Part shown: positions 4,406 to 38,449 of the stretch, in pieces
Layout: each line of letters begins with the position of its first letter
Position numbering within the stretch: the first letter of the stretch is position 1
Assembly: GCA_023386445.1 (NCBI GenBank)
Contig: JAEWJR010000087.1
Span: 1-40,000 of the forward strand
Source of the DNA: Bacillota bacterium
Lineage (GTDB): Bacteria > Bacillota > Clostridia > Acetivibrionales > DSM-1351
Length of the DNA stretch: 40,000 nucleotides
Direction: 5' to 3'
Made by a program: the position numbers and the translations under genes
Notes under the pieces: generated by a model
What the model was told of the DNA's origin: nothing
Databases searched by the model: none
What the model saw: only the letters and a program-made list of their open reading frames with translations

Positions 4406-5476
4406 ATGGGATTACCAAACATAAGCATAGCATTTAAATCAGCAGCAATAAGTGCAATAAAAAGAGGGGAGAGGGGCATAGTTGCTCTAATCATGAAGGA
4501 CAGCACAAATAATGGCTATAAGGAGCTTCTGACCGTTGTGGATATACCTTCTGATCTGTCCGATGCCAACAAGGCTGCCATTCAATTGGCCTTTACCGGA
4601 GGAGTAAAGCCTCCGTCAAAAGTACTTGTTTATGTGCAGCCTTTAGCAAGTACAGATTACACCGAGGCACAGGCATATCTTGAAACGGCCAAGTGGGACT
4701 ACCTGGCGGTAGTGGGCATAGAGTCAGATGAGATGGCGGGAATTGCAGCCTGGATAAAAGCTCTCAGAGAGAGCCTGAATAAAAAGGTAAAGGCTGTTTT
4801 ACCAGGAATAGCGGCAGATTACGAGGGAATTATAAACTTCACAACCGGGACAATAAAGGTTGGCTCCACAGCATACACCAATGTGCAGTATGCGCCGCGT
4901 ATAGCCGGATTGCTGGCAGGAACACCGCTCAACATATCAGCTACATTCCAGGTGCTGCCTGAAGTTACCGATGTTTCACCAAGGCTTACCAAAACACAGC
5001 TGGATACCGCCATTGACAGCGGCAAATTTGAGATATTCAACGATGGTGAGAAGGTAAAAGTGGCAAGAGCGGTAAATTCACTTGTAACCACTACCGCCGA
5101 CAAAGGTGAGGTTTATAAAAAGATCAAAATAATTGATATTCTTGACCTGATCTACAGTGATATAAAGAGAACGGCCGAGGACAGTTATATAGGCAAATAT
5201 CCCAACAGCTATGATAACAAGATACTTCTTATTACCGCAATCAACGGATATCTGGAAGGTCTTGCGGCAGACCAGCTATTGGATAGCAATGCTGAAAATT
5301 CCGCCAATATAGATATCGCCGCCCAAAAGATATACCTGAAATCAATTGGAGTAAATACAGATAACCTTACCGACCAGGAAGTAAAGGAGTACAACACAAA
5401 TGACAAGGTATTTCTGGGAGGGGCTATAAAACCGCTGGATGCCATTGAGGATATATCACTGGTAATGGCTATATAA
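4406..5476 (+). CDS. contractile tail sheath protein (XkdK-like)
   Basis: 356-aa ORF with a strong RBS. The N-terminus MGLPNISIAFKSAAISAIKRGERGIVALI is typical of the PBSX-type sheath family. The tube gene follows. Confidence 0.9.
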   Translation: MGLPNISIAFKSAAISAIKRGERGIVALIMKDSTNNGYKELLTVVDIPSDLSDANKAAIQLAFTGGVKPPSKVLVYVQPLASTDYTEAQAYLETAKWDYLAVVGIESDEMAGIAAWIKALRESLNKKVKAVLPGIAADYEGIINFTTGTIKVGSTAYTNVQYAPRIAGLLAGTPLNISATFQVLPEVTDVSPRLTKTQLDTAIDSGKFEIFNDGEKVKVARAVNSLVTTTADKGEVYKKIKIIDILDLIYSDIKRTAEDSYIGKYPNSYDNKILLITAINGYLEGLAADQLLDSNAENSANIDIAAQKIYLKSIGVNTDNLTDQEVKEYNTNDKVFLGGAIKPLDAIEDISLVMAI

Positions 5477-5503
5477 ATAAAGAGGAGAAGAGGTGACTGA
5501 CAT

Positions 5504-5932
5504 ATGGATGCATCAAAAGTAATGAATGGAAGCTGGGGAGAAGTGTGGATGGATGGAGAGAAGATTTCCGAATGTACCGCTCTTCAGGCAAAAATTGATA
5601 TTAAAAAAGAAGACGTTCCCATGTGCGGCAGAGCTACACCGGGTAAAAAATTATCCGGCTGGGAAGGTAAAGGCTCTATGAAGTTAAATAAAGTTAATTC
5701 CCGTATGGCAATAAAGATCGGCAATCTTATAAGAACGGGCCAGGAGCTCAAGGTGACTATTGTTTCAAAGCTGGCAGACCCCGCGGCATACGGTGCCGAA
5801 AGAATCGTACTGAGGAATGCTTCATTCGATGATTTGACTCTTGCGGATTGGGCTGCTCAGAAAAATGGGGAAGTTGACTGCCCGTTTACATTTGAAGACT
5901 ATTACTTTATGGACGTAATAGTACCGCAATAA
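5504..5932 (+). CDS. tail tube protein (XkdM-like)
   Basis: 142-aa ORF directly after the sheath gene. The sequence VMNGSWGEVWMDGEKISE is typical of XkdM-type core tail proteins. Confidence 0.85.
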   Translation: MDASKVMNGSWGEVWMDGEKISECTALQAKIDIKKEDVPMCGRATPGKKLSGWEGKGSMKLNKVNSRMAIKIGNLIRTGQELKVTIVSKLADPAAYGAERIVLRNASFDDLTLADWAAQKNGEVDCPFTFEDYYFMDVIVPQ

Positions 5933-5980
5933 TGTGAGGGATGCCTCAAAATGAGAGAATTGCAAATAATCAAATACCCA

Positions 5981-6114
5981 TACCAGTGCGCGAGTACAAC
6001 TTCGATAGATGGGAAGCTCTGTTAAAAGTGCATGTCTGAAATTGTGGTGAACCATACAAATTTCAGACATGTACTTTGTGAGCAATCCATTTGTTGAAGT
6101 TAGTATGGGAGCAC
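5981..6114. repeat. structured repeat element, copy A (candidate ncRNA or MITE-like element)
   Basis: It shares 15-nt identical blocks with copy B: CGCGAGTACAACTTC (5989-6003) and TTGAAGTTAGTATGG (6094-6108). Smaller shared blocks include AAAAGTGC, GTGAACC.TAC and CTTTGTG.GCA. A 15-bp closing helix and a 13-bp internal hairpin are visible. Confidence 0.6.
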
Positions 6115-6182
6115 TATTTCAATTTTGTCAGGTTTGCGGCACCACCTTTATTAAACTTTATATAAAGACGGAGGGAAAGACA

Positions 6183-6575
6183 ATGAAAAATGTAATGGAT
6201 ATATTGCTCACAATGGATGAAAGCAGGCTTGAGGCATCAACCCGGGATATTGAAATAAAAAGGCTCTCTGAAGAAACCGGGGAAAAGGTGGTATTCACCT
6301 GCCACAGTCTTTCAATGGACAAGTACATTCAGATAAAGGAAAACGCAACAAACGGTGATGAGATTGACACACTTGAGCTGCAGATATTTGCCATCATCGA
6401 AGGTGTAAAAAACCCTAACTTTAAAAGTGACGAGCTCATAGGCAGGTTTAAGGCTGCAACACCCAAGGAACTGGTGAAAAAGCTGCTCCGCCCCGGAGAA
6501 ATAAACAGGATATTTGAAATCATATCTGAACTGTCCGGTTTTGGAGGAGATACGGTACAAGAAATAAAAAACTGA
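6183..6575 (+). CDS. tail assembly chaperone (XkdN-like), short form
   Basis: ORF 6069..6575 trimmed to ATG 6183, with a GGAGGG RBS. It sits between the tube and tape-measure genes. The sequence IEIKRLSEETGEKVVF is typical of XkdN-like chaperones. Confidence 0.75.
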   Translation: MKNVMDILLTMDESRLEASTRDIEIKRLSEETGEKVVFTCHSLSMDKYIQIKENATNGDEIDTLELQIFAIIEGVKNPNFKSDELIGRFKAATPKELVKKLLRPGEINRIFEIISELSGFGGDTVQEIKN

Positions 6576-6742
6576 TAAGGACGGATGGACGGACCAGCTT
6601 AATGTACTATTGCTGGAAAAAAGACAAAAGCATTCGTCCATCTGTCTTCTGGAACCAGTCCGAGGCTGATTGGCTTGTAATAGATGCGTTTGCCAGGCAG
6701 GAAATAGAGGATGAAAAAAATTCTCATATAAATGTTCTTTAA
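6183..6742 (+). CDS. tail assembly chaperone, -1 frameshift-extended form
   Basis: The slippery heptamer A AAA AAC (6566-6572) lies just before the stop. The -1 frame stays open for 57 more codons (..LIRTDGRTSLMYYCWKKDKSIRPSVFWNQSEADWLVIDAFARQEIEDEK..) and ends at TAA 6740-6742, immediately before the tape-measure RBS. Confidence 0.55.
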
Positions 6743-6756
6743 AAGGAGGTGACATT

Positions 6757-8745
6757 ATGGCAGATGAAGTAAATAACATAGCTGCACTGAAAGACAATTT
6801 TACATCGGCGCTCAATAATATGATGAAGCAGCAAAAAAATTTTAAAAGGGAGACTCAGGAACTGTACAAACAACTGGGAATGCTATATGGGAACAGGATG
6901 CAGCTAAAAGTTGATACAAAGGCGGCAGGAAAGAATCTGACAATGACCTTAAGGGAGGCTCAGAAAGAATATGAGAAAATGAATAAACAAATTCGTGCCG
7001 AGGCTTCAAAAAAAATCAAGTTACAATTTGATACTTCTGACACAAATAAAAATATAAAAAAATTTGAAAAAGATATTAAAAAAGTAGAAACAGATATAGA
7101 TAAAATCAACAAAAAGAAAGTAGACACTCAAGGTATGTCATCCGGAAGCGGAAAATCAATATTTGAGCCTATAAAAGGGATTGCCGGCAAAATATTTAAT
7201 ATCTTCAGCTATGTGACAGGAGCCGTAAACAGTGCTGCAAATACAGGTATATCGACGCTTAATATTGCAGGGCAGTTGGAGCAAACGCAAACAATTTTTG
7301 AAATGATGCTCAAAAACAACAAAAACGGGCAGAAGATGATTGAGGATTTAAAGGATTTCTCCATAAAATCACCTTTTGAATTTGGAGATCTGGCAAAGAC
7401 AACTCAAACTGCACTTTCCAAGGGATTTAAGCAGAATGATATGATAAGTCTGCTGCAGGATGCCGGTGATGCGGCCTCTGGTACTGGAAAAGGTCAGGAA
7501 GGTGTTGACAATATAATCAATGCGCTGGGTCAGATGCAAAGAAAAGGCAAGGCTTCAGCTCAGGAAATGGATATGCTGACCGATAACGGAATTGATGCAT
7601 GGGAATATGTGGCTAAGGGTATAAAAAAATCGGCTGACCAGGCAAAAAATCTTGCGGAAAAAGGGTTATTACCGGCCGATAAGGCAATTCAGGCAATCCG
7701 GAATGGTATGAGACAGGATTTCAGCGGCAATATGAATAAACAGTCAACAACGTTATTAGCTACGTTCGCAAAAATAAAGAAGTTTGTAACTTTAAATGTT
7801 CTGGGATCCTTCGGAGAAGGTATACGGCAGGGCATACTGCCAAGTCTTCAAAGGTTTACCGACAAGCTGGCCAAAAACGGGGCCGGAATGAAGTTGTTCA
7901 AACAGAATATCCAGAATGTTGGGAAATCGATAGGAGAATTTCTAGGAAACAATGCCGACAGGCTGGTAAACTTTTTTGAAAAGCTATTTAGCGATGAGCA
8001 GTTTCAAAAAGCGGATTTTGGAGAGAAAATCAAAATGACATTGGACAAGATTTATATCTCAATAAAAGCATGGTTTGATGGAGAGGGCGGAAGCAAGATT
8101 AAGGAAGCCTTTAAAAGCATGGCGGACGGTGCAATGCAAATTATATTAGTTGCAGCTACTGAATATATTCCTAAGTTTGGAGATTTGGGTTTGCAAATGG
8201 GTGGGGCAATGATTGAGGGGATAGCTTCAGCTTTTGATAGAAATTTCCCTGGATATGATTTTAGAGAATGGCGAAGGGAAAAATCAGCTCAACTAGATCA
8301 AAAATTATTTGATTCACTTAATAATTCTGGAATAGAAGAGTGGTTGCAAAAAAGAGACCCTAGTAGAAAGCAAAAACAAATTGAGTTAGTTCGTAAAAAG
8401 TTAAATAATCCTAAAGTTAGTAAAGAGGAAAAAGAAGATATAAAAAAATTCTATCCAGAGGCATACCAGATAGTAACAGGCAATACACCCTCCTCAAAAA
8501 ATTCAAAGTCTATGCCATATGCATTCGGCGTCAGCAGGGTTCCATACAACAATTACCCTGCACTGCTGCATGAGGGGGAGAGGGTTCTCACAAAGCAGGA
8601 AGCTAACAAAACGGCTGGGTTCTCCATAAACATTGCAAAGCTTGCCGACCATTTGGTAATAAGAGAAGAGGCCGACATTGAAAAAGTCACCGAAAGATTG
8701 GCTCTAAAGCTGTATAAATATAGCCTGAACACAGGAGGGGTATAG
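6757..8745 (+). CDS. tail tape measure protein
   Basis: 662-aa ORF with a coiled-coil N-terminus and a TP901-type core (FEFGDLAKTTQ...NALGQMQRKGKASAQEMDMLTDNGIDAWE). It is in the canonical position. Confidence 0.9.
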   Translation: MADEVNNIAALKDNFTSALNNMMKQQKNFKRETQELYKQLGMLYGNRMQLKVDTKAAGKNLTMTLREAQKEYEKMNKQIRAEASKKIKLQFDTSDTNKNIKKFEKDIKKVETDIDKINKKKVDTQGMSSGSGKSIFEPIKGIAGKIFNIFSYVTGAVNSAANTGISTLNIAGQLEQTQTIFEMMLKNNKNGQKMIEDLKDFSIKSPFEFGDLAKTTQTALSKGFKQNDMISLLQDAGDAASGTGKGQEGVDNIINALGQMQRKGKASAQEMDMLTDNGIDAWEYVAKGIKKSADQAKNLAEKGLLPADKAIQAIRNGMRQDFSGNMNKQSTTLLATFAKIKKFVTLNVLGSFGEGIRQGILPSLQRFTDKLAKNGAGMKLFKQNIQNVGKSIGEFLGNNADRLVNFFEKLFSDEQFQKADFGEKIKMTLDKIYISIKAWFDGEGGSKIKEAFKSMADGAMQIILVAATEYIPKFGDLGLQMGGAMIEGIASAFDRNFPGYDFREWRREKSAQLDQKLFDSLNNSGIEEWLQKRDPSRKQKQIELVRKKLNNPKVSKEEKEDIKKFYPEAYQIVTGNTPSSKNSKSMPYAFGVSRVPYNNYPALLHEGERVLTKQEANKTAGFSINIAKLADHLVIREEADIEKVTERLALKLYKYSLNTGGV

Positions 8746-15160: not shown

Positions 15161-15296
15161 TAGGGAAGGAATTCGACAATGTGAAGATTAATAAAATGTG
15201 TAATTAATGTATAAAATTTAAAAGCACGGACTAAAAGGATTACTCAATAATGGGTAGTCCTTTGTTTATTACAAAAATCATGAAAGGGTGAGACAA

Positions 15297-15983
15297 ATGA
15301 AACAAGAAGGCAAATTCATTTTAATGGACCGGGATGAACTCAGGGTTTACATTGAAGGGCTGAAGGGAGCTAAGACCTTCAAAACTATCCAGCAGCATCA
15401 TACGGCAAGTCCGGCATATAAGGACGTTAAAAACAACCATTTTCAGTTAATGAAGGGTATGGAAAATTATCATGTCGGCACACTGAAAATGAGTGAAATA
15501 GCCCAGCACTTCAGCGCATTTCCTGATGGAACCATATGTGCAGGCCGGCCGCTTACAAAAGATGGCGGAGGGTTCCTGAATCCACTTAATAAGGACTCAA
15601 TAACTACTGAGAACGTTGGGAACTTTGATTCTGATATTATGACAGAGGATCAAACGCAAAGTATCATATTGCTGAATGCTCTTCTGTGCAAAAAGTTCAA
15701 TATAGTTCCTTCCACTTCAACGCTGATATATCATTGCTGGGTGCAAAACAAGTCGTGCCCGGGACTGAAATGGTTCGAAGGAAATACCAGGACAGCTGCG
15801 GAGAGATATTTTATACCTCTTATAAAAGCGGCAATGGAAGAGCCCATGACTTTTGAGCAAGCATTAGACATTGTTTCAAGGAAAGTAAATACGGTATATC
15901 CATACTGGCTTAAAAGAAGGGATATAGATCCGGCATTTTCAGCCTTAATTATAAAAGTTGCAAAAGCGTTTGGAGGTGAGTAG
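15297..15983 (+). CDS. N-acetylmuramoyl-L-alanine amidase (Amidase_2/PGRP-type endolysin)
   Basis: ORF 15288..15983, with ATG 15297 preferred. The motifs QQHHTAS, TENVGNFD and IYHCW..NKSCPG fit the amidase_2 fold. The holin gene follows. Confidence 0.8.
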   Translation: MKQEGKFILMDRDELRVYIEGLKGAKTFKTIQQHHTASPAYKDVKNNHFQLMKGMENYHVGTLKMSEIAQHFSAFPDGTICAGRPLTKDGGGFLNPLNKDSITTENVGNFDSDIMTEDQTQSIILLNALLCKKFNIVPSTSTLIYHCWVQNKSCPGLKWFEGNTRTAAERYFIPLIKAAMEEPMTFEQALDIVSRKVNTVYPYWLKRRDIDPAFSALIIKVAKAFGGE

Positions 15984-20324: not shown

Positions 20325-20401
20325 TGGTACGCCCGACACGATTCGAACGTGCGACCTGCGGTTTAGGAAACCGACGCTCTATCCTACTGAGCTACGGGCG
20401 C
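20325..20401 (-). tRNA. tRNA-Arg (anticodon CCT), CCA encoded
   Basis: The hand-folded 77-nt cloverleaf reads GCGCCCG-TA-GCTC-AGTAGGATA-GAGC-G-TCGGT-TTCCTAA-ACCGC-AGGTC-GCACG-TTCGAAT-CGTGT-CGGGCGT-A-CCA. The anticodon loop has U33 and A37. Confidence 0.9.
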
Positions 20402-23533: not shown

Positions 23534-23742
23534 GGTTACCTCCGGATATCTAATTAATCCAAAATCAGTGTTTCTTTACCCTTATACTTTATCATAAATT
23601 CTTTTATTTGTGATATTTAACGGATAATTTATCGTTTTGCGCCGGTTTTAATTTATGGTTATCCTGGCGATAAATGGTATTTGCCAAAACAAAGGTTTTG
23701 CCACACAGGGAGACAGCTTTATAGTTGAATTTGTTATAGATT

Positions 23743-24015
23743 ATACCGGTACGCGAGTACAACTTCAAGCAATGGATAGCTCGGTAAAAGTGCTTTATGA
23801 AATTTGTAGGTAAACAACAGGTATTTTAGCCGGCAAAGTGACAGGAGGTCCCAGCTTGACTATCATGAAATTCATTCTAGTCAAGCGGAGCATCACGCGA
23901 GACCCGGATGGTCGAGTCGATACGACGGCAATAAATACTTGTTGTGAACCGTACTATTTCAAGCAAGCGCTTTGTGTGCAGCCATTGCTTGAAGTTAGTA
24001 TGGAAGTACCGGTAT
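23743..24015. repeat. structured repeat element, copy B (candidate ncRNA or MITE-like element)
   Basis: It has the same terminal blocks as copy A (23752-23766 and 23989-24003 are identical 15-mers). There is a perfect 15-bp closing helix AACTTCAAGCAATGG/CCATTGCTTGAAGTT plus an outer 10-bp helix ATACCGGTAC/GTACCGGTAT. An extra insertion of about 150 nt contains its own hairpins. Confidence 0.6.
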
Positions 24016-24259
24016 AAGCAGTACAATTTTTTACTGGTAATATTGATTAACCCAGTAGCACAACGCGTTAATTTTAAGGAAATCCGTGGAATTTATTTTA
24101 CCGATGTTCTATAATTGAATATAAATGATTTCTCAAACATTATATATGCAAGTTTTTTCAGAAAAAATGATAAACTAATAACTGAGTTTGTGAAAAGGGA
24201 TTTAAATTTTGGCGTATGTAATACAACGCAGCAAATTAATAATGACGGAGGTAGAAAAT

Positions 24260-26065
24260 ATGGCTTCAAACAAAGCGTTACCAAAGAGACAGGATATCGA
24301 CTCCAAATTCAAATGGAAGCTGGAGGATATTTATAGCGACAGCTCCTTATGGGAGCAGGACTTCAAAAAGGTAAAGGAACTGGCGGAGCAGATAAAGGGC
24401 CTGCAGGGCAAGCTGGCAGAGAGTGCACAAAGGCTGCTGGAATGCTTCAAAAAAAGTGATGAACTGTTATCGCTGAATGATAAGGTGTTTGTATACGCCA
24501 GAATGAAGAGGGATGAAAATAACGGGGATGCAGCCTATCAGGCTCTGACAGAGAGAGCGTCCTCACTGGCAACCGAGGTTTTTGCGGCTATTTCCTATAT
24601 AGTTCCTGAAATGCTCAGCATTCCTGAGGAGACACTGCTTTCATATGTAAACTCGGATAAGGAACTGTCTGTCTACATGTTCTCAATTAAAGAAAATTTA
24701 AGGCAGAAGGAGCATATCTTATCCGAAAAGGAAGAACATATACTGGCCATGTCGGCTGAAATATCCGATACCGCCGGAGATGTGTTTACAATGTTCAATA
24801 ACGCCGACATCAAATTCCCCTACATAAAGGATGAAGAGGGGGAAGAGATTGAGGTAACCAAAGGAAGATATATCGCATTTCTGGAGAGCAAGGACAGAAG
24901 GGTGAGAAAGGATGCTTTTGAGGCTGTTTACAGTTCCTATAAAAAGATGAAGAACACATTGGCTGCATCTCTGACAGGCAATGTCAAGAAAAACAGGTTT
25001 TATTCACTTGTACGCAAATATCCCTCTGCATTGGAGGCCTCACTGGACAATGACAATATTTCAGTGGATGTTTATACAACACTTATAGATACAGTCAGCA
25101 AGAATTTACCCTTGCTGGACAGATACCTGAAACTGCGTAAGAAGGTCCTGAAGCTTGACGAACTTCACATGTATGATCTATATGTTCCCATGGTTGAGGA
25201 ATTTGACAAGAAGATACCCTATGAAGAGGCCCGCACTATAGTGGCAGAGGCTTTGAAGCCTTTGGGAGAAGAATATGTAGGATATCTGCAAAAGGGTATG
25301 AACTCCGCATGGATAGACGTGTATGAAAATGAAGGTAAGACCAGCGGCGCGTATGCATGGGGGGCTTACAAGACCCATCCGTATGTTCTGCTCAACTACC
25401 AGGATAAAATAAATGATGTATTCACGCTTGCACACGAAATGGGGCATGCACTGCACTCCTACTATACCAATATGACCCAGCCCTATGTGTATTCGGAATA
25501 TAAAATATTTGTAGCAGAGGTGGCTTCAACAGTAAATGAATCTCTTCTTATGAGATACCTGCTGCCCAGAGCTTCAAGCAAACAGGAAAAGGCTTATTTA
25601 TTGAACCACTACCTGGAGGAATTCAGAGGAACAGTATTCAGACAGGTAATGTTTGCGGAGTATGAAAAAATCATACATGAAAAGGTAGAACAGGGAGAGG
25701 CTTTGAATGCGCAGGAACTCAGCGACATTTACTACGGACTCAACAAAAAATATTTCGGTGAAGCTGTAACCGTTGACGAGGATATAGCAATGGAATGGTC
25801 CAGGATACCTCATTTCTACAGCAGCTTCTATGTATATAAATATGCTACAGGCTTCTCCTCACCGACAGCCATAGCAGAAAAGATCCTTACCGAAGGAAAG
25901 CCGGCGGTTGACAAGTATCTGCAATTCCTGAAGAGCGGCGGATCAAATTACCCCCTGGAGCTGTTAAAGATTGCCGGCGTGGATCTCTCAACTCCGCAGC
26001 CTATCCAGGATGCACTGAATGTGTTTGAAAAGACGCTGGATGAACTGGAAGAACTCTTAAAATAG
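24260..26065 (+). CDS. pepF: oligoendopeptidase F (M3B)
   Basis: ORF 24209..26065 trimmed to ATG 24260, with a GGAGG RBS. It has the HEMGH zinc motif, and the N-terminus LPKRQDIDSKFKWKLEDIY is typical of PepF. Confidence 0.9.
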   Translation: MASNKALPKRQDIDSKFKWKLEDIYSDSSLWEQDFKKVKELAEQIKGLQGKLAESAQRLLECFKKSDELLSLNDKVFVYARMKRDENNGDAAYQALTERASSLATEVFAAISYIVPEMLSIPEETLLSYVNSDKELSVYMFSIKENLRQKEHILSEKEEHILAMSAEISDTAGDVFTMFNNADIKFPYIKDEEGEEIEVTKGRYIAFLESKDRRVRKDAFEAVYSSYKKMKNTLAASLTGNVKKNRFYSLVRKYPSALEASLDNDNISVDVYTTLIDTVSKNLPLLDRYLKLRKKVLKLDELHMYDLYVPMVEEFDKKIPYEEARTIVAEALKPLGEEYVGYLQKGMNSAWIDVYENEGKTSGAYAWGAYKTHPYVLLNYQDKINDVFTLAHEMGHALHSYYTNMTQPYVYSEYKIFVAEVASTVNESLLMRYLLPRASSKQEKAYLLNHYLEEFRGTVFRQVMFAEYEKIIHEKVEQGEALNAQELSDIYYGLNKKYFGEAVTVDEDIAMEWSRIPHFYSSFYVYKYATGFSSPTAIAEKILTEGKPAVDKYLQFLKSGGSNYPLELLKIAGVDLSTPQPIQDALNVFEKTLDELEELLK

Positions 26066-27268: not shown

Positions 27269-30200
27269 TTAAATTTCAAACAGCTCTGTCAGTTCCTGCT
27301 GTGTCATTTTGGTAAGAAGGGTTTCTCCGGACTGGATTACGGCATCCACCAGCTGTTTTTTCCTTTCCTTGAGACTCAGGATCTTTTCCTCAATGGTACC
27401 GTGGGTGACCAGTTTCATGACATGAACCGTTTTGGTCTGACCTATCCTGTACGCACGGTCGGTTGCTTGATCCTCCACTGCGGGATTCCACCAGGGGTCG
27501 TAATGGATAACGGTATCGGCGCCGGTGAGGTTCAGCCCCGTTCCCCCGGACTTGAGCGAAAGCAGAAATATATTGCCTTCTCCGCTGTTGAAGCTGCGAA
27601 CAAGCTTCATTCTTTCATCAGCCGGAGTTGCTCCGTCAAGGTAAAGGTAATTGATTCCTGTTTCCTCAAGCCAGCCCCTGATTATACCAAGCATTGAGGT
27701 AAACTGGGAGAAAAGCAGTATTCTATGGCCTGCTGTAAGGGAATCCTCCACTACCTCCATGAGCAGCTGAAGCTTTCCGCTGTCACCCTCATAGTCTTCT
27801 ACAAACAAAGATGGGTGACAGCACAGCTGACGCAATCTTGTGAGGATAGAAAGAATTTTGATCTGGCTTTTTTCAAAGCCCTTTTCTTTGATCTCACTAA
27901 ACAATTCACCCTTAGCCTCTTCAAGATATGCGACATAAAGTTTCTTCTGCTCCTGGGTAAGTTCTGCTTCAATAATATGCTCGATTTTCTCAGGCAGCTC
28001 CTTTAAAACATCCTGCTTCAGTCTTCTTAGGATAAAAGGCCGGATCTGCCTGCCAAGGCTTGAAAGCGATGAGGTATCCCCTTTGGATATGGGAGTCTCA
28101 TATTTTTCTGCAAATTTTGAATGTGAGCACAGATAGCCGGGAAGTATAAAATCAAATACCGACCACAGTTCGGTGAGATTATTCTCCATGGGTGTGCCGG
28201 TGAGGGCCAGTCTGTGTTCCGATGCTATCTGCTTTACAGCTTTTGATGCCTGTGAAAGGGGATTCTTTATGTGCTGAGCCTCATCCAGGATACAATATCT
28301 GAAATTATAGGGCGTATAGTCATCTATATCCCTCCTGATCAAAGCATACGAGGTTACCACAAGATCTGATCCGATACCTTGCCGTATCAGCTCCTGGCGT
28401 TCAGTTTTATTACCCACGACGGCAGTTACAGACATATCCGGAGCAAACTTGTGAATTTCCGAGCACCAGTTGTATATTAAAGAAGTGGGAACTATAACAA
28501 TAGATGGACGACTGCCTGACGATTGCTTGTCAAATTCCAGCAGGGTAATAACCTGGAGTGTTTTGCCAAGCCCCATGTCATCGGCCAGTATCCCGCCCAG
28601 ACCATAATGGGAGAGCGTTTTCATCCATTTGAAACCAAGTTTCTGGTAATCTCTCAACGTTCCTTTGATGCTTCTGGGTATTTTGTATTCTGTTTCAGCG
28701 GGGTCCTGAATATCATGAATCAGGTCCTTTAAAGCCGTATTGCGTTCAAAGAATTTCATCCCGCTCTCTTTAAGCATATTATCTATGTACAGTGCCCTGT
28801 ATTTGGGCAGCTTTATAAAATCCCCTTCAATGTCGGAGGAACTCAGATCCAGCTGCTCCAAAATCTCTGCCATATTCAGCAGACTTTCCGCTTCAAGAGT
28901 CAGAAAAGCACCATCCTTCAGGCGGAAATACTTTTTTTTCTGCCTGATACTGTCAAAAATGTTTGGCAGCTCCTCACGTTCGACACCTTCAATATTGAAA
29001 TTGAATTCCAGAAAGCCGTTCAAACTGTTCAATCTCAGAAAGCCTGAGAAAGAAAGCTGCTTCTTAAAGCTCATGGCTTTAAAGCTTTCCGAATAATATA
29101 CCTGCGCATGCTCCTGAAGCTTGGGTATGACATAATTTACGAAATCAAATATTTTTTCCTCTTCGTCCAGGTAGATTCTGTTGCTGCTGACTTTACAATC
29201 TGTCTCGGCAAGAATGTCCAATATATTACTCTCGGCCTCAAGATTTCTTATGAGTATCTTATCAAAAGAGGGCTTGGCTCTGTCGGCAGAAAAGGGATTT
29301 ATAACCCGGTCTCCATACTTAAATTTCACGTCGGCCGTTATAATATATTCAAACCTGTCAAGATAAATTTCCGGCTCAAATTCGGGCCTTTCGACCAATG
29401 CCTGGAGTTCTTCGTCAATGAATACTTTGCCGGTTTTTTCGATAAAAGGTAAAATCTCAGTAAACAAGCGCTCTTTATCGTTGTCCAGAAAGCTGATCCT
29501 GTTATTATTTTCTTTTTGCACATATTGAATAAACGGCTTGAGATATTCCTTTTGATACTGCGAAACCTTACAGATGCTATTTTTATATAGAAAATATTCA
29601 CAATCTGAAGTTGCCATGTGAAGAGGATATTTTGTATCAATGCCCAGATCCACAGTGCTGGCATTTTTAGTTAACGTAAAGTCAACAGGTATGTCCAGGA
29701 CCTGAATTACAACATTTTCTAATGTTTTCCCGTCTGTTATTACGTTGAAGGAAAGAGGGGACAGCAATTCCAACAATCTCTTAAGAGCTCCGTCTGATAA
29801 AAATATTTCCTTGTCCCTGAAAATACTTTGCTTTTTTATGTCACCGGTCAGATAATCTATAAGATTTTCATTTTGCCACATTTCCGACAGGTAAGAAATA
29901 ATGGCCTGGTCTTTCTCGTCAAAATTATGAATAACGGGGTCAAAGGAAAAACCTTTTCCATAGACCAACTCTTTATCATTTTTGAAGCACTCCAGCAGTT
30001 CGCCTACATTTCTGACAATATACAGTCTATCTGTACCTATCCGCAGTGTCAGTGCCGCCGCAGGCCCTCTTTTTATATTGGAAACCTTTGTTTTAAGCAG
30101 CTCCAGGGTGTATTCAACCTTTATAGCCGTTTTCATATTTCCTGTTTTATTGTTAAAAAACTCGAAGATTTCTTTGGCAGCTTTTTTCTGAGAGGCAGAA

Positions 30201-30502
30201 TTAAAGAACCCTTGCTCATCCTTTGACTTAATTAGCAGCAAAACTGCAGTGATATGCTTGCAGCAGCTTTCAGTACGGGTGTTATCGGTACAGGTACAGG
30301 AATAATCCTTTATCCGGCCTTCTTTGCCGAATTGGATTTGTACGTTATATGGATGGGTACCAATAACCGTTGCATCGAAAAGCATAAGCTCTTCATTAAA
30401 GGAGACGGACTTTACTCTGTTTGAACTATAATATTCCATACCCTTTTTAAATTTCATAGGGGTAGAGAGGTAGTATATACTGTCTTTTGAAATTTGAAAC
30501 AT
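27269..30502 (-). CDS. SNF2-family helicase with N-terminal SWIM zinc finger (YwqA-like)
   Basis: 1077-aa ORF. It has a SWIM-like CTC...CCKH near residue 70, a DEAQHIKN (DExH) box, helicase motifs LTGTPMENN and QATDRAYRIGQ, and a long middle SNF2-associated region. Confidence 0.9.
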   Translation of the reverse strand: MFQISKDSIYYLSTPMKFKKGMEYYSSNRVKSVSFNEELMLFDATVIGTHPYNVQIQFGKEGRIKDYSCTCTDNTRTESCCKHITAVLLLIKSKDEQGFFNSASQKKAAKEIFEFFNNKTGNMKTAIKVEYTLELLKTKVSNIKRGPAAALTLRIGTDRLYIVRNVGELLECFKNDKELVYGKGFSFDPVIHNFDEKDQAIISYLSEMWQNENLIDYLTGDIKKQSIFRDKEIFLSDGALKRLLELLSPLSFNVITDGKTLENVVIQVLDIPVDFTLTKNASTVDLGIDTKYPLHMATSDCEYFLYKNSICKVSQYQKEYLKPFIQYVQKENNNRISFLDNDKERLFTEILPFIEKTGKVFIDEELQALVERPEFEPEIYLDRFEYIITADVKFKYGDRVINPFSADRAKPSFDKILIRNLEAESNILDILAETDCKVSSNRIYLDEEEKIFDFVNYVIPKLQEHAQVYYSESFKAMSFKKQLSFSGFLRLNSLNGFLEFNFNIEGVEREELPNIFDSIRQKKKYFRLKDGAFLTLEAESLLNMAEILEQLDLSSSDIEGDFIKLPKYRALYIDNMLKESGMKFFERNTALKDLIHDIQDPAETEYKIPRSIKGTLRDYQKLGFKWMKTLSHYGLGGILADDMGLGKTLQVITLLEFDKQSSGSRPSIVIVPTSLIYNWCSEIHKFAPDMSVTAVVGNKTERQELIRQGIGSDLVVTSYALIRRDIDDYTPYNFRYCILDEAQHIKNPLSQASKAVKQIASEHRLALTGTPMENNLTELWSVFDFILPGYLCSHSKFAEKYETPISKGDTSSLSSLGRQIRPFILRRLKQDVLKELPEKIEHIIEAELTQEQKKLYVAYLEEAKGELFSEIKEKGFEKSQIKILSILTRLRQLCCHPSLFVEDYEGDSGKLQLLMEVVEDSLTAGHRILLFSQFTSMLGIIRGWLEETGINYLYLDGATPADERMKLVRSFNSGEGNIFLLSLKSGGTGLNLTGADTVIHYDPWWNPAVEDQATDRAYRIGQTKTVHVMKLVTHGTIEEKILSLKERKKQLVDAVIQSGETLLTKMTQQELTELFEI

Positions 30503-30660: not shown

Positions 30661-31995
30661 TCAGACAACAGCCGGTAGGGTCTTTGCCGTACAGGAGATA
30701 AGAAATTCCGTCAATTCCTCGGTACTATTTATTTTTATGTCCCCGTTACAGCGTGCAAGTTCATTTTGAACGATGCTGAGTCCAAAGCCTCTTGTTTTGG
30801 AGGGATTGTCCTTTGTAGAATATCCGGCGTTGAATATTTTACTTCTATCCGATTCCGGTATCATGGGGCCATTATTTGAAATGGAGATAACATAACGTTC
30901 TTCCTGTATATAGGTCTGAAGGTGAACGAATTTATTTTCCTTTTCAATACTGTTCATAGCTTCAAAAGCGTTCTCTATTATATTGGAAATGATGGTAACA
31001 GCCATATCTTCCGCAAGACCTGCTGAAGACAAAGGTTCCTCAAAATCTGCTCTTAACTCGATACCTTTTCTGAAAGCATTGTTATACTTTACGTTAATAA
31101 TTGCATCTACAAAATCATTGCCTGAATCTATGGATATATTTTTGGTAGAGCTGTTGTTTGCAAAATTATTTATATAGTGCTTGATCCTATCGATAGAATC
31201 GGATTTGTTAAGCGTACAAAGGCCATAGATGGTATTCAGGTGATTTTTGTATTCATGGCGTTCCTTGGCCACCATTTCATTAAAATCAAGGAGCTGGCGG
31301 ATGCTTTCCTTTTGCATTTCGTTTGCATACTGAAGGAGCTCAAGCTTTGAACCTTCCCGGAAGGCTGAAAACATGGCAACCATCAGAACTAAATAGATAA
31401 TAAATGAAAACAGGTTAAAAAGGTATGCTTTTTGGGGCTGGCCTGATAGAAAGATATTAACGAATACGAAAAATATTAATACGGTTGATATTATAACCAG
31501 TATTTGTTTATATTTTGACTGATAAGGGTTACTGTCGCTCAGCCATGCCAGATTGACAGGTTTTTTATAAAAGGCGAATAATCCAAGGACTTCAACTGTT
31601 TTGCTAATAATACTGCATATTAATACATAAAGGTTATTTTGCAGCAGTTCGTTCATAGGAATACTGGTAACCAACATGGCAAATGTTGCTACAATTATCT
31701 CGACTATAGTTACATAAGTTGTAATTAAAAAAACTTTTATCAGGCTTTTATATATTTTTCCATTAAATACATAGTTTAATGCAGCTACGGTAAGAATCAA
31801 TATGAGTACGGTATGAAAACCTGCCGGAATAAACAGTGATATCCAATAAGCATATATTGTATAAATTGTAATAAAAGATATGTATTTAAACTTCTTTTTA
31901 ATTATATTTTCCTTAAACCCGGATAACAAGGAAAATGCGTATATTATGATAAAACCCTCTAAAACAGTAAATAATACTTCACTGGCAGTAAACAC
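30661..31995 (-). CDS. agrC: AgrC-like membrane sensor histidine kinase (GHKL)
   Basis: 444-aa ORF with a GTG start and AAGGAGGG upstream. It has about 6 N-terminal TM helices, an H-box ERHEYKNHLNTIYGL, an N-box ISNIIENAFEA and a G-box GFGLSIV. Confidence 0.8.
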   Translation of the reverse strand: MFTASEVLFTVLEGFIIIYAFSLLSGFKENIIKKKFKYISFITIYTIYAYWISLFIPAGFHTVLILILTVAALNYVFNGKIYKSLIKVFLITTYVTIVEIIVATFAMLVTSIPMNELLQNNLYVLICSIISKTVEVLGLFAFYKKPVNLAWLSDSNPYQSKYKQILVIISTVLIFFVFVNIFLSGQPQKAYLFNLFSFIIYLVLMVAMFSAFREGSKLELLQYANEMQKESIRQLLDFNEMVAKERHEYKNHLNTIYGLCTLNKSDSIDRIKHYINNFANNSSTKNISIDSGNDFVDAIINVKYNNAFRKGIELRADFEEPLSSAGLAEDMAVTIISNIIENAFEAMNSIEKENKFVHLQTYIQEERYVISISNNGPMIPESDRSKIFNAGYSTKDNPSKTRGFGLSIVQNELARCNGDIKINSTEELTEFLISCTAKTLPAVV

Positions 31996-32023
31996 TTCGT
32001 ATTATCCCTCCTTACATAGATAC

Positions 32024-32067
32024 GAAAAAAGCCATAAATATATATACGGCGTACATATGTTTATGAC
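32024..32067 (-). terminator. hairpin plus U-tract between candidate agrD and agrC (attenuator or terminator)
   Basis: The minus strand reads GTCATAAACATATGTACGCCGTATATATATTTATGGC followed by TTTTTT. Confidence 0.45.
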
Positions 32068-32102
32068 TTTTCCCAGACTTGATTTCAAATTAATTAGTGA
32101 GG

Positions 32103-32207
32103 CTATTCTTTAGGCTCGTAGAAAAATATCAACTTCAAAACACCGACGCCTAACCCTGCAACATACGAAGAAAATAAACCGACTGACTTCAATAAATGTT
32201 TTTTCAA
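32103..32207 (-). CDS. agrD: candidate AgrD-like autoinducer propeptide (non-canonical, no Cys)
   Basis: 34-codon ORF not in the track, with a TTG start and GGAG 8 nt upstream: (M)KKHLLKSVGLFSSYVAGLGVGVLKLIFFYEPKE. It sits between agrB and agrC and ends in an E-P-K-E tail reminiscent of AgrD. Confidence 0.4.
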   Translation of the reverse strand: MKKHLLKSVGLFSSYVAGLGVGVLKLIFFYEPKE

Positions 32208-32289
32208 TAGAATCACTCCATTTTCGACATTTTATATATAAATAATCCCTCTAATTGACATGAAAGTCAATGGCTTTTTAAAAAATATA

Positions 32290-32856
32290 CTAAATTTCGT
32301 TAAAAAGTTTATTTTTGAACAGTTGGTACAGAGACAGCAAATAAATTATAGTTACAGAAACAAGCACTATTTGAGCTGGTATATAAAAATAATCAAGCAG
32401 TAATAGTGCAGGTGTTAAAACAGCCGCCAGTATTCTATAAGCTGCCTTTCTTTCATCCACCCTCCTGGTTCTGACAGGAGCAATAAATGCACCGGTTACC
32501 GTAAGAGCTATTACAAGTACAATCTGTACAGAGCCTGGGATTGCATCTGCTCTTCCGGCAAAAACGTTTATTGCCATTGTAATAAAGGATACGGCAAGGC
32601 AGACAAACTCGCTTTTTGCATGGTAGCCTCCTAAAATGGGACGAAGCAATAGTATAACTGCAAAAGCCAGCAGATATTCCAATGCAGCGGAGAACAGGGC
32701 AAAAACTATCAGCAGCAGGAGAAATTTATACAGATCGGAAAAAATACAAACAAGACCATACCGTATTCTCCTGGCTTCAGTCTCTGAGTATTCGGCATTG
32801 GAGATGACTGCTTCGGCGACTTTGTTTGCAAGTTTTCTGTAGAAGGTTATTTCCAT
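32290..32856 (-). CDS. agrB: AgrB-family autoinducer-processing membrane peptidase
   Basis: ORF 32290..32877 trimmed to ATG 32856, which has GGAGG upstream. It has multiple TM helices and the conserved block RPILGGYHAKSEFVCLAVS containing the catalytic His/Cys pair. Confidence 0.8.
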   Translation of the reverse strand: MEITFYRKLANKVAEAVISNAEYSETEARRIRYGLVCIFSDLYKFLLLLIVFALFSAALEYLLAFAVILLLRPILGGYHAKSEFVCLAVSFITMAINVFAGRADAIPGSVQIVLVIALTVTGAFIAPVRTRRVDERKAAYRILAAVLTPALLLLDYFYIPAQIVLVSVTIIYLLSLYQLFKNKLFNEI

Positions 32857-32946
32857 AAGGCCTCCGGCAATACACATTATAATAAAATGCTACCATATCA
32901 TAAGGCATAAGTGAAGAACAATTTGCGTTTTAGATGTCACAGACTG

Positions 32947-38302: not shown

Positions 38303-38449
38303 AGTTGTATCCTTAATGAATTATTGTGATAGTATGCCCAAAAACAAAAAATCATTATTCATCAGCCTTTTTATTGAATTATGTATGGGAGCAAACAAAT
38401 ATGAAATATGGCTCCATATTTGTAATACCCCCTCGTGAAATTTGAATAT

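Follow-up and report, generated by a model that had tools for sequence, protein, structure and literature searches.

The tail operon in the window (the whole 40,000-nt stretch of DNA analysed here) raises a simple question: what occupies the 250 nt of non-coding DNA between the tail tube gene and the tail assembly chaperone gene (5933-6182)? The gene coordinates agree with this gap as first described. The tail module is PBSX-like, with a sheath gene (4406-5476), the tube gene, an XkdN-like chaperone gene and a tape measure gene (6757-8745). Its other junctions had been given as 0-30 nt. Most are overlaps or at most 27 nt long, but the chaperone and tape measure genes lie 181 nt apart. That second junction contains a 46-codon ORF, which is called in identical contigs. 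By homology to L127:4098-4238 (loci used for comparison are cited by L numbers), this ORF lies at 6602-6742 of the window, and its position fits the usual frameshift-extension partner of tail assembly chaperones.

The tube protein is 96% identical to that of Ruminiclostridium cellobioparum, which places the window beside this species. Most probably, the spacer is a decayed member of a family of dispersed palindromic repeats in R. cellobioparum and its relatives; it can probably no longer move, and is present in the tail mRNA as a passive hairpin. This copy is called copy A, and a second one in the window is called copy B.

The surroundings hold several further features. In the same tail cluster of one metagenome strain, the position of the tail-terminator gene, immediately before the sheath gene, is taken by a DDE_Tnp_1 transposase gene (L202:1-404); it carries no ends of the repeat family, and its end has no similarity to that family. 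The tail genes are followed by an amidase gene (15288-15983) and, ~4 kb further on, by a tRNA gene (20328-20401, minus strand, 63.7 bits) that might mark an attachment site. An agr-like locus is found at 30661-32877 on the minus strand, with AgrB at 32290-32877 and a GHKL histidine kinase at 30661-31995, near a large SNF2/SWIM helicase gene (27269-30502).

Structure of Copy A

The two helices of the preliminary description can be read off the sequence. The 15-bp closing helix with three G-U pairs is formed by AACTTCGATAGATGG (5998-6012) and CCATTTGTTGAAGTT (6087-6101), and the perfect 13-bp hairpin by CATGTCTGAAATT (6031-6043) and AATTTCAGACATG (6059-6071). The hairpin loop is present as well, with a length of 15 nt (GTGGTGAACCATACA) and not 14. 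It folds further, into GUGG/CCAUAC with a UGAA cap. The fold of 5970-6125 reaches -66.8 kcal/mol, compared with -31.9 ± 4.1 kcal/mol for shuffled sequences (z -8.5; 0 of 200 shuffles), and that of the whole gap -92.1 kcal/mol (z -8.3). The element had been delimited at 5981-6114. It does lie there, but homology and pairing span 5938-6146, nearly the whole gap (Table 1). In the fold, copy A possesses the large P1 closing stem that is a feature of the TwoAYGGAY RNA, and the same rod helices covary across 36 relatives.

The minimum-energy prediction gave a different three-way fold, in which GUGC-GCGA-GUAC forms a tetraloop hairpin and CCCAUAC pairs with GUAUGGG. It was rejected: its outer helix is disrupted in L127, a near-identical variant, and its small hairpin in L164 and L140, both of which keep the rod. 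A 13-codon ORF on the 5' strand, with its ATG at the ATGG block, was also discarded: it has no ribosome-binding site, and indels shift its frame between subfamilies.

Table 1. Features of the two repeat copies in the window and of the genes flanking copy A.
Feature	Positions	Strand	Evidence and remarks
Tail tube gene	5504..5932	+	Pfam PF09393, E = 2e-48; upstream neighbour of copy A
Left outer arm, copy A (A-type, GGGATGCC TCAAAATGAGAGAATTGCAAATA...)	5938..5984	+	Homologous to left arms of unrelated A-type L163, L189 and L167; pairs with 6116-6146 in the fold
P1 rod 5' strand (AGTGC, GCGA internal loop, GTAC, AACTTCGATAGATGG, CATGTCTGAAATT)	5985..6043	+	nhmmer family-profile positions 3-67, E = 1e-13; fold
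Deletion cap GTGG-TGAA-CCATACA	6044..6058	+	Alignment with full-length A-type L163 and L167; site of the 104-nt TwoAYGGAY module in full-length copies
P1 rod 3' strand (AATTTCAGACATG ... CCATTTGTTGAAGTT A GTAT GGGA GCACT)	6059..6115	+	nhmmer profile positions 167-243, E = 2e-17; fold
Right outer arm, copy A (..TTTCAATTTTGTCAGGTTTGC GGCACCACC)	6116..6146	+	~21 nt shorter than in full copies
U-rich tract TTTATTAAACTTTATATAAAG	6147..6169	+	Common to the insert-free allele (DSM 1351 alignment), there directly 3' of a 10-bp GC-rich hairpin
Shine-Dalgarno GGAGGG of chaperone	6170-6175	+	Intact despite the insert; start codon also untouched
XkdN-like tail assembly chaperone gene	6183-6575	+	PF08890; unchanged by the insert
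Copy B core (B-type)	23741..24016	+	nhmmer E = 4e-68; fold z = -10.5; alignment with full B-type copies
~32-nt insertion in module hairpin 1 of copy B	23847..23879	+	Alignment with full B-type copies
Right outer arm, copy B, ending in family terminus GCACAACGCGTT	24017..24069	+	Homology to B-type copies

A Dispersed Family of Palindromic Repeats

The exact pattern GCGAGTACAACTTCNNNNNATGG was scanned over 185,579 species genomes and gave 64 loci. Twelve of these are chance matches in unrelated phyla, while 52 are true and belong to two R. cellobioparum genomes and seven related Bacillota metagenome-assembled genomes (MAGs). In this single scan, ~15 loci were found in CT1112 (R. cellobioparum subsp. 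termitidis), ~13 in R. cellobioparum DSM 1351 and ~15 in MAG OH_PBB_181, the remainder being spread over six further Bacillota MAGs. A profile search with nhmmer counts ~62 copies in the 52 true loci; the copies first noticed belong to a family of at least 60 members found across related genomes. BLAST searches of copies A and B and of full-length A-type and B-type elements against phage and plasmid collections gave nothing, and exact-pattern scans of IMG/VR with two conserved blocks returned chance matches only.

All copies are intergenic and non-coding. The flanking genes are convergent in 15 cases, tandem in 21 (12 co-oriented with the element, nine opposite) and divergent in one, the distribution expected if the element is tolerated at the 3' ends of genes. 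Elements are often adjacent, head-to-head or tail-to-tail within a few hundred bases (L147:6092-6811; L139/L150; L168; L133). A chimeric copy in MAG OH_CBB_158 (L157:2235-2581, minus strand) consists of a truncated full-length element fused to a far more diverged short relative (GUGAGCACAGCUUUUG...CAAAAGUUAGUGCGGGAG), which indicates that the family reaches beyond what the exact-pattern scan can catch.

Homology and inverted-repeat symmetry extend 50-70 nt past the element as first noted, on both sides. The full element is therefore an imperfect palindrome of ~330-370 bp. Two subfamilies can be distinguished, an A-type (..TATAGTGC GCGA GTAC..) and a B-type (..TATACCGGTAC GCGA GTAC..). In the consensus of 36 distinct full cores, the sequence folds into a long rod that is interrupted by small internal loops, themselves conserved (GCGA facing GGRA is one example), and topped by a three-way module. 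In these cores, 97.2% of the cells are paired, compared with 31-39% with slid partners, and compensatory changes occur at 28 of 68 pairs; the observed values were reached by none of 500 shuffles. The two hairpin loops of the module read (C)AGGA(U/G/A) and (C/A)(C/A)GGAU in the relatives, the GGA of hairpin 1 being CGA in four of the 36 copies.

In most copies the conserved blocks are 218-222 nt apart; copy A, with 118 nt, belongs to a short minority. It matches the full A-type copies along both arms, with a 104-nt gap exactly at the module, flanked by the direct repeats TTGTAGGTGAA / TTGTGGTGAA (10-11 nt). As the alignment shows, copy A has lost the module by deletion between these repeats, together with part of its right arm. 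Having no module, it displays no GGA hairpin at all.

The second copy, reported 18 kb away, was located at 23741-24016. Its P1 rod is intact and its TwoAYGGAY module is disrupted. Compared with copy A, its closing helix shows compensatory changes (U-G to G-C and A-U to C-G). The ~32-nt insertion listed in Table 1 takes part in a local hairpin of its own, which is nearly perfect (CAGCTTGACTA...TAGTCAAGCGG). On the left, copy B has lost its outer arm (~55 nt) or has other sequence in its place. In the replacing sequence, ~15 nt upstream of the core, a promoter-like TTGCCA-16-TATAGT is found (10 of 12 matches; 23698-23725, plus strand). Copy B may have a transcript that runs in the direction of the oligoendopeptidase F gene (24261-26065). 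The nhmmer profile search detected no third copy in the window. A "75% third copy" at 38367-38394 is a chance match with neither a partner block nor an nhmmer hit. Copies A and B are both fossils of the family.

Ends, Target Duplications and Polymorphism

One of the original suggestions was a mobile structured element. The family is indeed multi-copy and dispersed, with presence/absence, inversion and deletion polymorphism, and one subfamily has terminal inverted repeats together with target-site duplications. This is the B-type, whose inverted repeats are AACNCGTTGTGC...GCACAACGNGTT. Its copies are flanked directly by AACTT/AACTT, AAGTT/AAGTT or AAATT/AAATT at six independent loci. At all six, the central base of AANTT is repeated directly and not as its complement; the flanks are thus target duplications of the palindromic site TTAANTTAA. 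The duplication is 5 bp long if the element end is AAC, in a range of 3-9 bp for this palindromic target. Such ends with a duplicated palindromic target are the hallmark of MITEs, non-autonomous DNA transposons that depend on a transposase acting in trans. The A-type copies end in GGATGYC-YAAAA...TTTGC-GRCAYCC, copy A included (GGGATGCC / GGCACCACC), and no recognisable target duplication was found for them, copy A again included.

Sister genomes reveal in situ deletion of the module, short and full forms being present at the same locus (L139 vs. L150 and L190 vs. L173). At one convergent-gene locus, the element is inverted between CT1112/DSM 1351 (L136:4715-4979) and MAG OH_PBB_181 (L144:2314-2579); the elements are 94% identical and the flanks ~84%. 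There are two ways to explain the opposite orientations: recombination between the arms flipped the element, or separate insertions struck the same hot spot. L168 (CT1112) and L170 (DSM 1351) differ by the deletion of most of one element, and by another element that is present in CT1112 and absent from DSM 1351. This diverged element (L168:2683-3013 vs. L170:~7540) is flanked by a ~19-24-bp imperfect host duplication (..TCCATTGAGGCTGTT / ..TTCATTGAGGCTGTT), far longer than the 5-bp duplications of other B-type copies. No autonomous partner with the same ends was found in the family loci, where the scan for transposon-sized end pairs was too permissive to be informative.

Relation to the TwoAYGGAY RNA

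The preliminary description also considered an unclassified non-coding RNA. This is contradicted by the full-length relatives, since the RNA that they carry is already present in Rfam. Three A-type copies exceed the gathering score (43 bits) of RF01731, the TwoAYGGAY RNA: L163 with 49.6 bits (E = 3e-7), L138 with 48.0 bits and L167 with 47.3 bits. The B-type L162 reaches 34.6 bits (E = 7.5e-4), below the gathering score. The aligned region comprises the inner rod plus the module, both GGA-loop hairpins included.

Copies A and B give no match to RF01731 even at E-values up to 10, and the Rfam matches that they do give are spurious, of miRNA type or Pistol. Rfam is silent on the window because both copies are decayed. 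For copy A, the diagnostic module is gone and a direct search finds nothing, but an existing Rfam annotation does apply in part, via its full-length relatives. Its tie to TwoAYGGAY rests on the homology of the flanking rod and arms.

The TwoAYGGAY RNA has been on record since 2010, when it was reported in gut metagenomes, Clostridiales and gamma-proteobacteria, with a P1 that is often very large (at least 24 bp). It was judged to be probably an RNA and not cis-regulatory, and its codes in the table of that study are "COV nc loc", not "rep" or "tson", so that no repeat or transposon flag was given (Weinberg et al. 2010, PMC2864571). A later study suggested that it is an sRNA that binds (sequesters) CsrA in Clostridia, and that one of its stems contains tandem G-A pairs (Gardner & Eldai 2015, PMC4333381). 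In the part of the original alignment considered here, at least seven copies come from one genome, that of Psychromonas ingrahamii, and the five Psychromonas rows examined share conserved flanks. RF01731 is assigned to the Rfam clan CL00106, the clan of the Csr/Rsm sRNAs. The stem-loop ACAGGAUGU is identical to the core of the CsrA SELEX consensus, RUACARGGAUGU. Another structured RNA, a glycine riboswitch aptamer in R. cellobioparum CT1112 (L147:114-204, plus strand, 58.7 bits), is unrelated to the repeat.

Strand Bias of the Core

A long palindrome can fold on either strand. In 47 of 48 copies, the plus strand of the element gives a more stable fold than the complement does, with a mean difference of 15.5 kcal/mol, and its folds contain 255 G-U pairs versus 89. 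This bias was divided between core and arms by fold-based counts; a crude arm-versus-arm mismatch count was dropped, being too noisy from internal loops. For the core alone, the plus strand is favoured in 40 copies versus three (170 vs. 44 G-U pairs). The outer arms alone show no bias (14 vs. 14 copies; 85 vs. 93 G-U pairs). As the bias is limited to the core and the arms are symmetric, the arms are considered to be inverted repeats at the level of DNA, and the core to be a structure under selection on a single strand.

The sequences around the core are asymmetric as well. The sense T-run after the core is longer than the mirrored A-run in 26 copies, the reverse being true in four. A sense TAnnnT hexamer is located 3-22 nt before the core in 28 of 40 copies, compared with 10 of 40 for its mirror. 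Copy A has no such sense -10-like hexamer. Scans for canonical sigma-70 (-35/-10) promoters and for terminators gave nothing above the shuffle expectation for either window copy.

The strand-specific fold of the core could instead be used as single-stranded DNA, for example in a transposition or replication intermediate, and the supposed RNA motif would then be a DNA structure. This alternative is less likely than the RNA reading of the core, and we regard it as unlikely. The elements are mobile, the orientation in tandem contexts is unbiased (the 12 and nine copies given above), the scans recovered no canonical sigma-70 promoter, and G-T wobble pairs are tolerated in DNA hairpins, all of which would suit a DNA structure. 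However, target duplications are typical of double-strand DDE transposition, for which no internal fold is needed, and the asymmetry is confined to the core and absent from the arms, which would be the substrate of the transposase. The T-run and the TAnnnT hexamer are sense-specific, and the core matches the covariance model of a family judged "probably RNA".

An intact member is therefore best described in two layers. The outer arms behave as DNA-level inverted repeats. The ~245-nt core is selected for the fold of one strand only, most probably as an RNA of the TwoAYGGAY type (RF01731), with a very long P1 rod containing conserved internal loops and a three-way module whose two hairpins display GGA.

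The Insert-Free Allele and the Role of Copy A

The gap between the tube and chaperone genes is only 59 nt long in six contigs whose tube protein is 96% identical, one of them from R. cellobioparum DSM 1351. It reads TAA GAGGGACGGATAATCCGTCCC TTTATTGAAC..., and forms a hairpin (-18.2 kcal/mol) with a U tract (TTTATT) directly 3' of it. In the window, the same flanks enclose the element between GGGATGCC and GGCACCACC, followed by TTTATTAAAC. A comparable hairpin, GGGAGCC..GGCTCC TTTT, exists in the more distant cluster L203, and the L204 and L205 clusters have a 23-nt junction without a hairpin. The gap had been described as an insertion, and the insert is indeed absent from DSM 1351, but the spacer there is a short terminator-like hairpin. 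The 59-nt gap with its hairpin indicates that the insert sits in, or replaces, an ancestral hairpin. The insert-free hairpin has a stem (GGGACGG/CCGTCCC) similar to copy A's own outer stem (GGGATGCC/GGCACCACC). Since the two stems resemble each other and A-type copies have no target duplication, insertion and replacement both fit: the element may have entered the hairpin loop or replaced the hairpin, or the short allele may be a remnant of the element.

Copy A occupies the place that an intrinsic-terminator-like hairpin holds in the nearest relative. In the tail mRNA, it would be only a very stable hairpin next to the old U-rich tract. Partial termination, protection of the 3' end of the sheath-tube message, or cleavage by RNase III would be possible outcomes, and an attenuator role is conceivable. 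A consensus terminator scan of 5400-6700 (plus strand) called none; by eye, GGCACCACC is followed by TTTATT in the window.

It had been suggested that the element is a processing or stability element setting the stoichiometry of the tube versus the downstream proteins. As a dedicated function, this finds no support, since the orthologous DSM 1351 cluster does without the insert and has a simple hairpin instead; a passive effect on stoichiometry is possible. We consider it improbable that copy A is a dedicated cis-acting RNA of the tail operon, selected for processing, stability or attenuation. Such a role would agree with its position, exactly where related clusters (DSM 1351, L203) have a terminator-like hairpin. 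It would also agree with the GC-rich basal stem kept beside the same U-rich tract, with its co-orientation with the operon, and with the presence of the insert in all six contigs with an identical tube protein, in which it is fixed. However, the insert is absent from an orthologous cluster whose tube protein is 96% identical, copy A is a deletion derivative, the L204/L205 junction manages with 23 nt and no hairpin, and the same sequence family is found at ~60 unrelated intergenic sites. The insert-free allele and these ~60 sites make a dedicated role unlikely.

A functional trans-acting sRNA of the TwoAYGGAY, or CsrA-sponge, type is highly improbable for copy A. The resemblance of the family core to RF01731, predicted to sequester CsrA (PMC4333381), would speak for it, but copy A is without the module and its GGA hairpins, which effectively refutes this function; it also lacks the sense -10-like hexamer and any Rfam match, and is located inside a polycistronic operon. 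An ordinary diverged spacer or a chance palindrome, for which only the AT-rich context can be quoted, is already refuted by the fold z-scores of -8.3 to -10.5 (0 of 200 shuffles), the ~60 homologous copies and the covariation, and its probability is practically nil. We infer that copy A is neither a dedicated regulator nor a functional TwoAYGGAY RNA.

Implications

For the window, the spacer is best seen as a fossil mobile repeat in a permissive terminator site of a PBSX-like tail cluster, to be annotated as a repeat and not as a regulator. For the RNA family, the consequences may be broader. TwoAYGGAY has been an orphan motif since 2010, and it is found here inside an element with defined ends and target duplications, at no fewer than 13-15 loci per genome. 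The family gives a testable picture of how these RNAs spread, and its natural variants (full, module-deleted, module-disrupted and inverted in place) can be used to test the role of the RNA.

Tentatively, and with low confidence, we propose that miniature transposons, at least in Ruminiclostridium, carry TwoAYGGAY RNAs as cargo, in the form of small-RNA genes. The inverted-repeat arms would supply mobility, through the ends and the target duplication, as well as a minimal expression cassette, with the sense-only -10-like hexamer before the core and the sense-only U-run after it. The core would be a putative two-site GGA decoy on a long rod, possibly for CsrA. If so, the dose of a protein-sponge RNA would evolve by transposition, and copies A and B would be fossils scattered through operons. 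No published statement was found in the literature searched of TwoAYGGAY RNAs riding on a MITE-like element, or of a split in selection between arms and core; searches for the organism with MITE or repeat, and for CsrA with MITE, gave nothing relevant. The RNA family and the MITE kind are each known by themselves.

Comparison with Known Systems

Compared with an intercistronic intrinsic terminator or attenuator, copy A is similar in its location right after the major tube gene and in its GC-rich basal stem followed by UUUAUU. It differs in its size, with a stem-loop of ~210 nt, and in its origin from a repeat; in addition, CCACC (five bases) may separate the firm stem from the U tract.

The likeness of the family to TwoAYGGAY includes the very large P1, the two GGA-loop hairpins, the occurrence in Clostridia, the absence of a tie to 5' UTRs and the presence of several copies per genome. 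Apparent tandem G-A pairs are also seen by eye in the aligned copies (CGAGAC...GUCGAG). In contrast to TwoAYGGAY, the loops of the family read A-GGA-K, one base shorter than AYGGAY, the core is nested in inverted-repeat arms with target duplications, the B subfamily scores below the threshold, and copy A has no module. With the sponge sRNAs CsrB, RsmY and RsmZ, the family core shares the display of GGA in hairpin loops, but each family RNA has only two such GGA sites, and copy A has none.

Comparable bacterial elements, which are MITEs or palindromic intergenic repeats whose RNA folds stably, include ERIC/IRU of the enterobacteria, Correia/NEMIS of Neisseria and bcr1 of the Bacillus cereus group. 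Like the family described here, they are non-coding, 130-370 bp long, present in dozens of copies and imperfectly palindromic over their whole length. They likewise occupy gene 3' ends and operon interiors, and have size variants that arise by internal deletion or insertion. A short AT-rich target duplication is also known from bcr1 (5 bp, TTTAT), and the co-transcribed hairpins of such repeats can change mRNA stability. The likeness to these repeats is one of features, and no similarity of sequence is expected. Unlike them, the present family contains a three-way module that is not palindromic, shows covariation and corresponds to a curated RNA family, and its unbiased arms contrast sharply with its strand-biased core.
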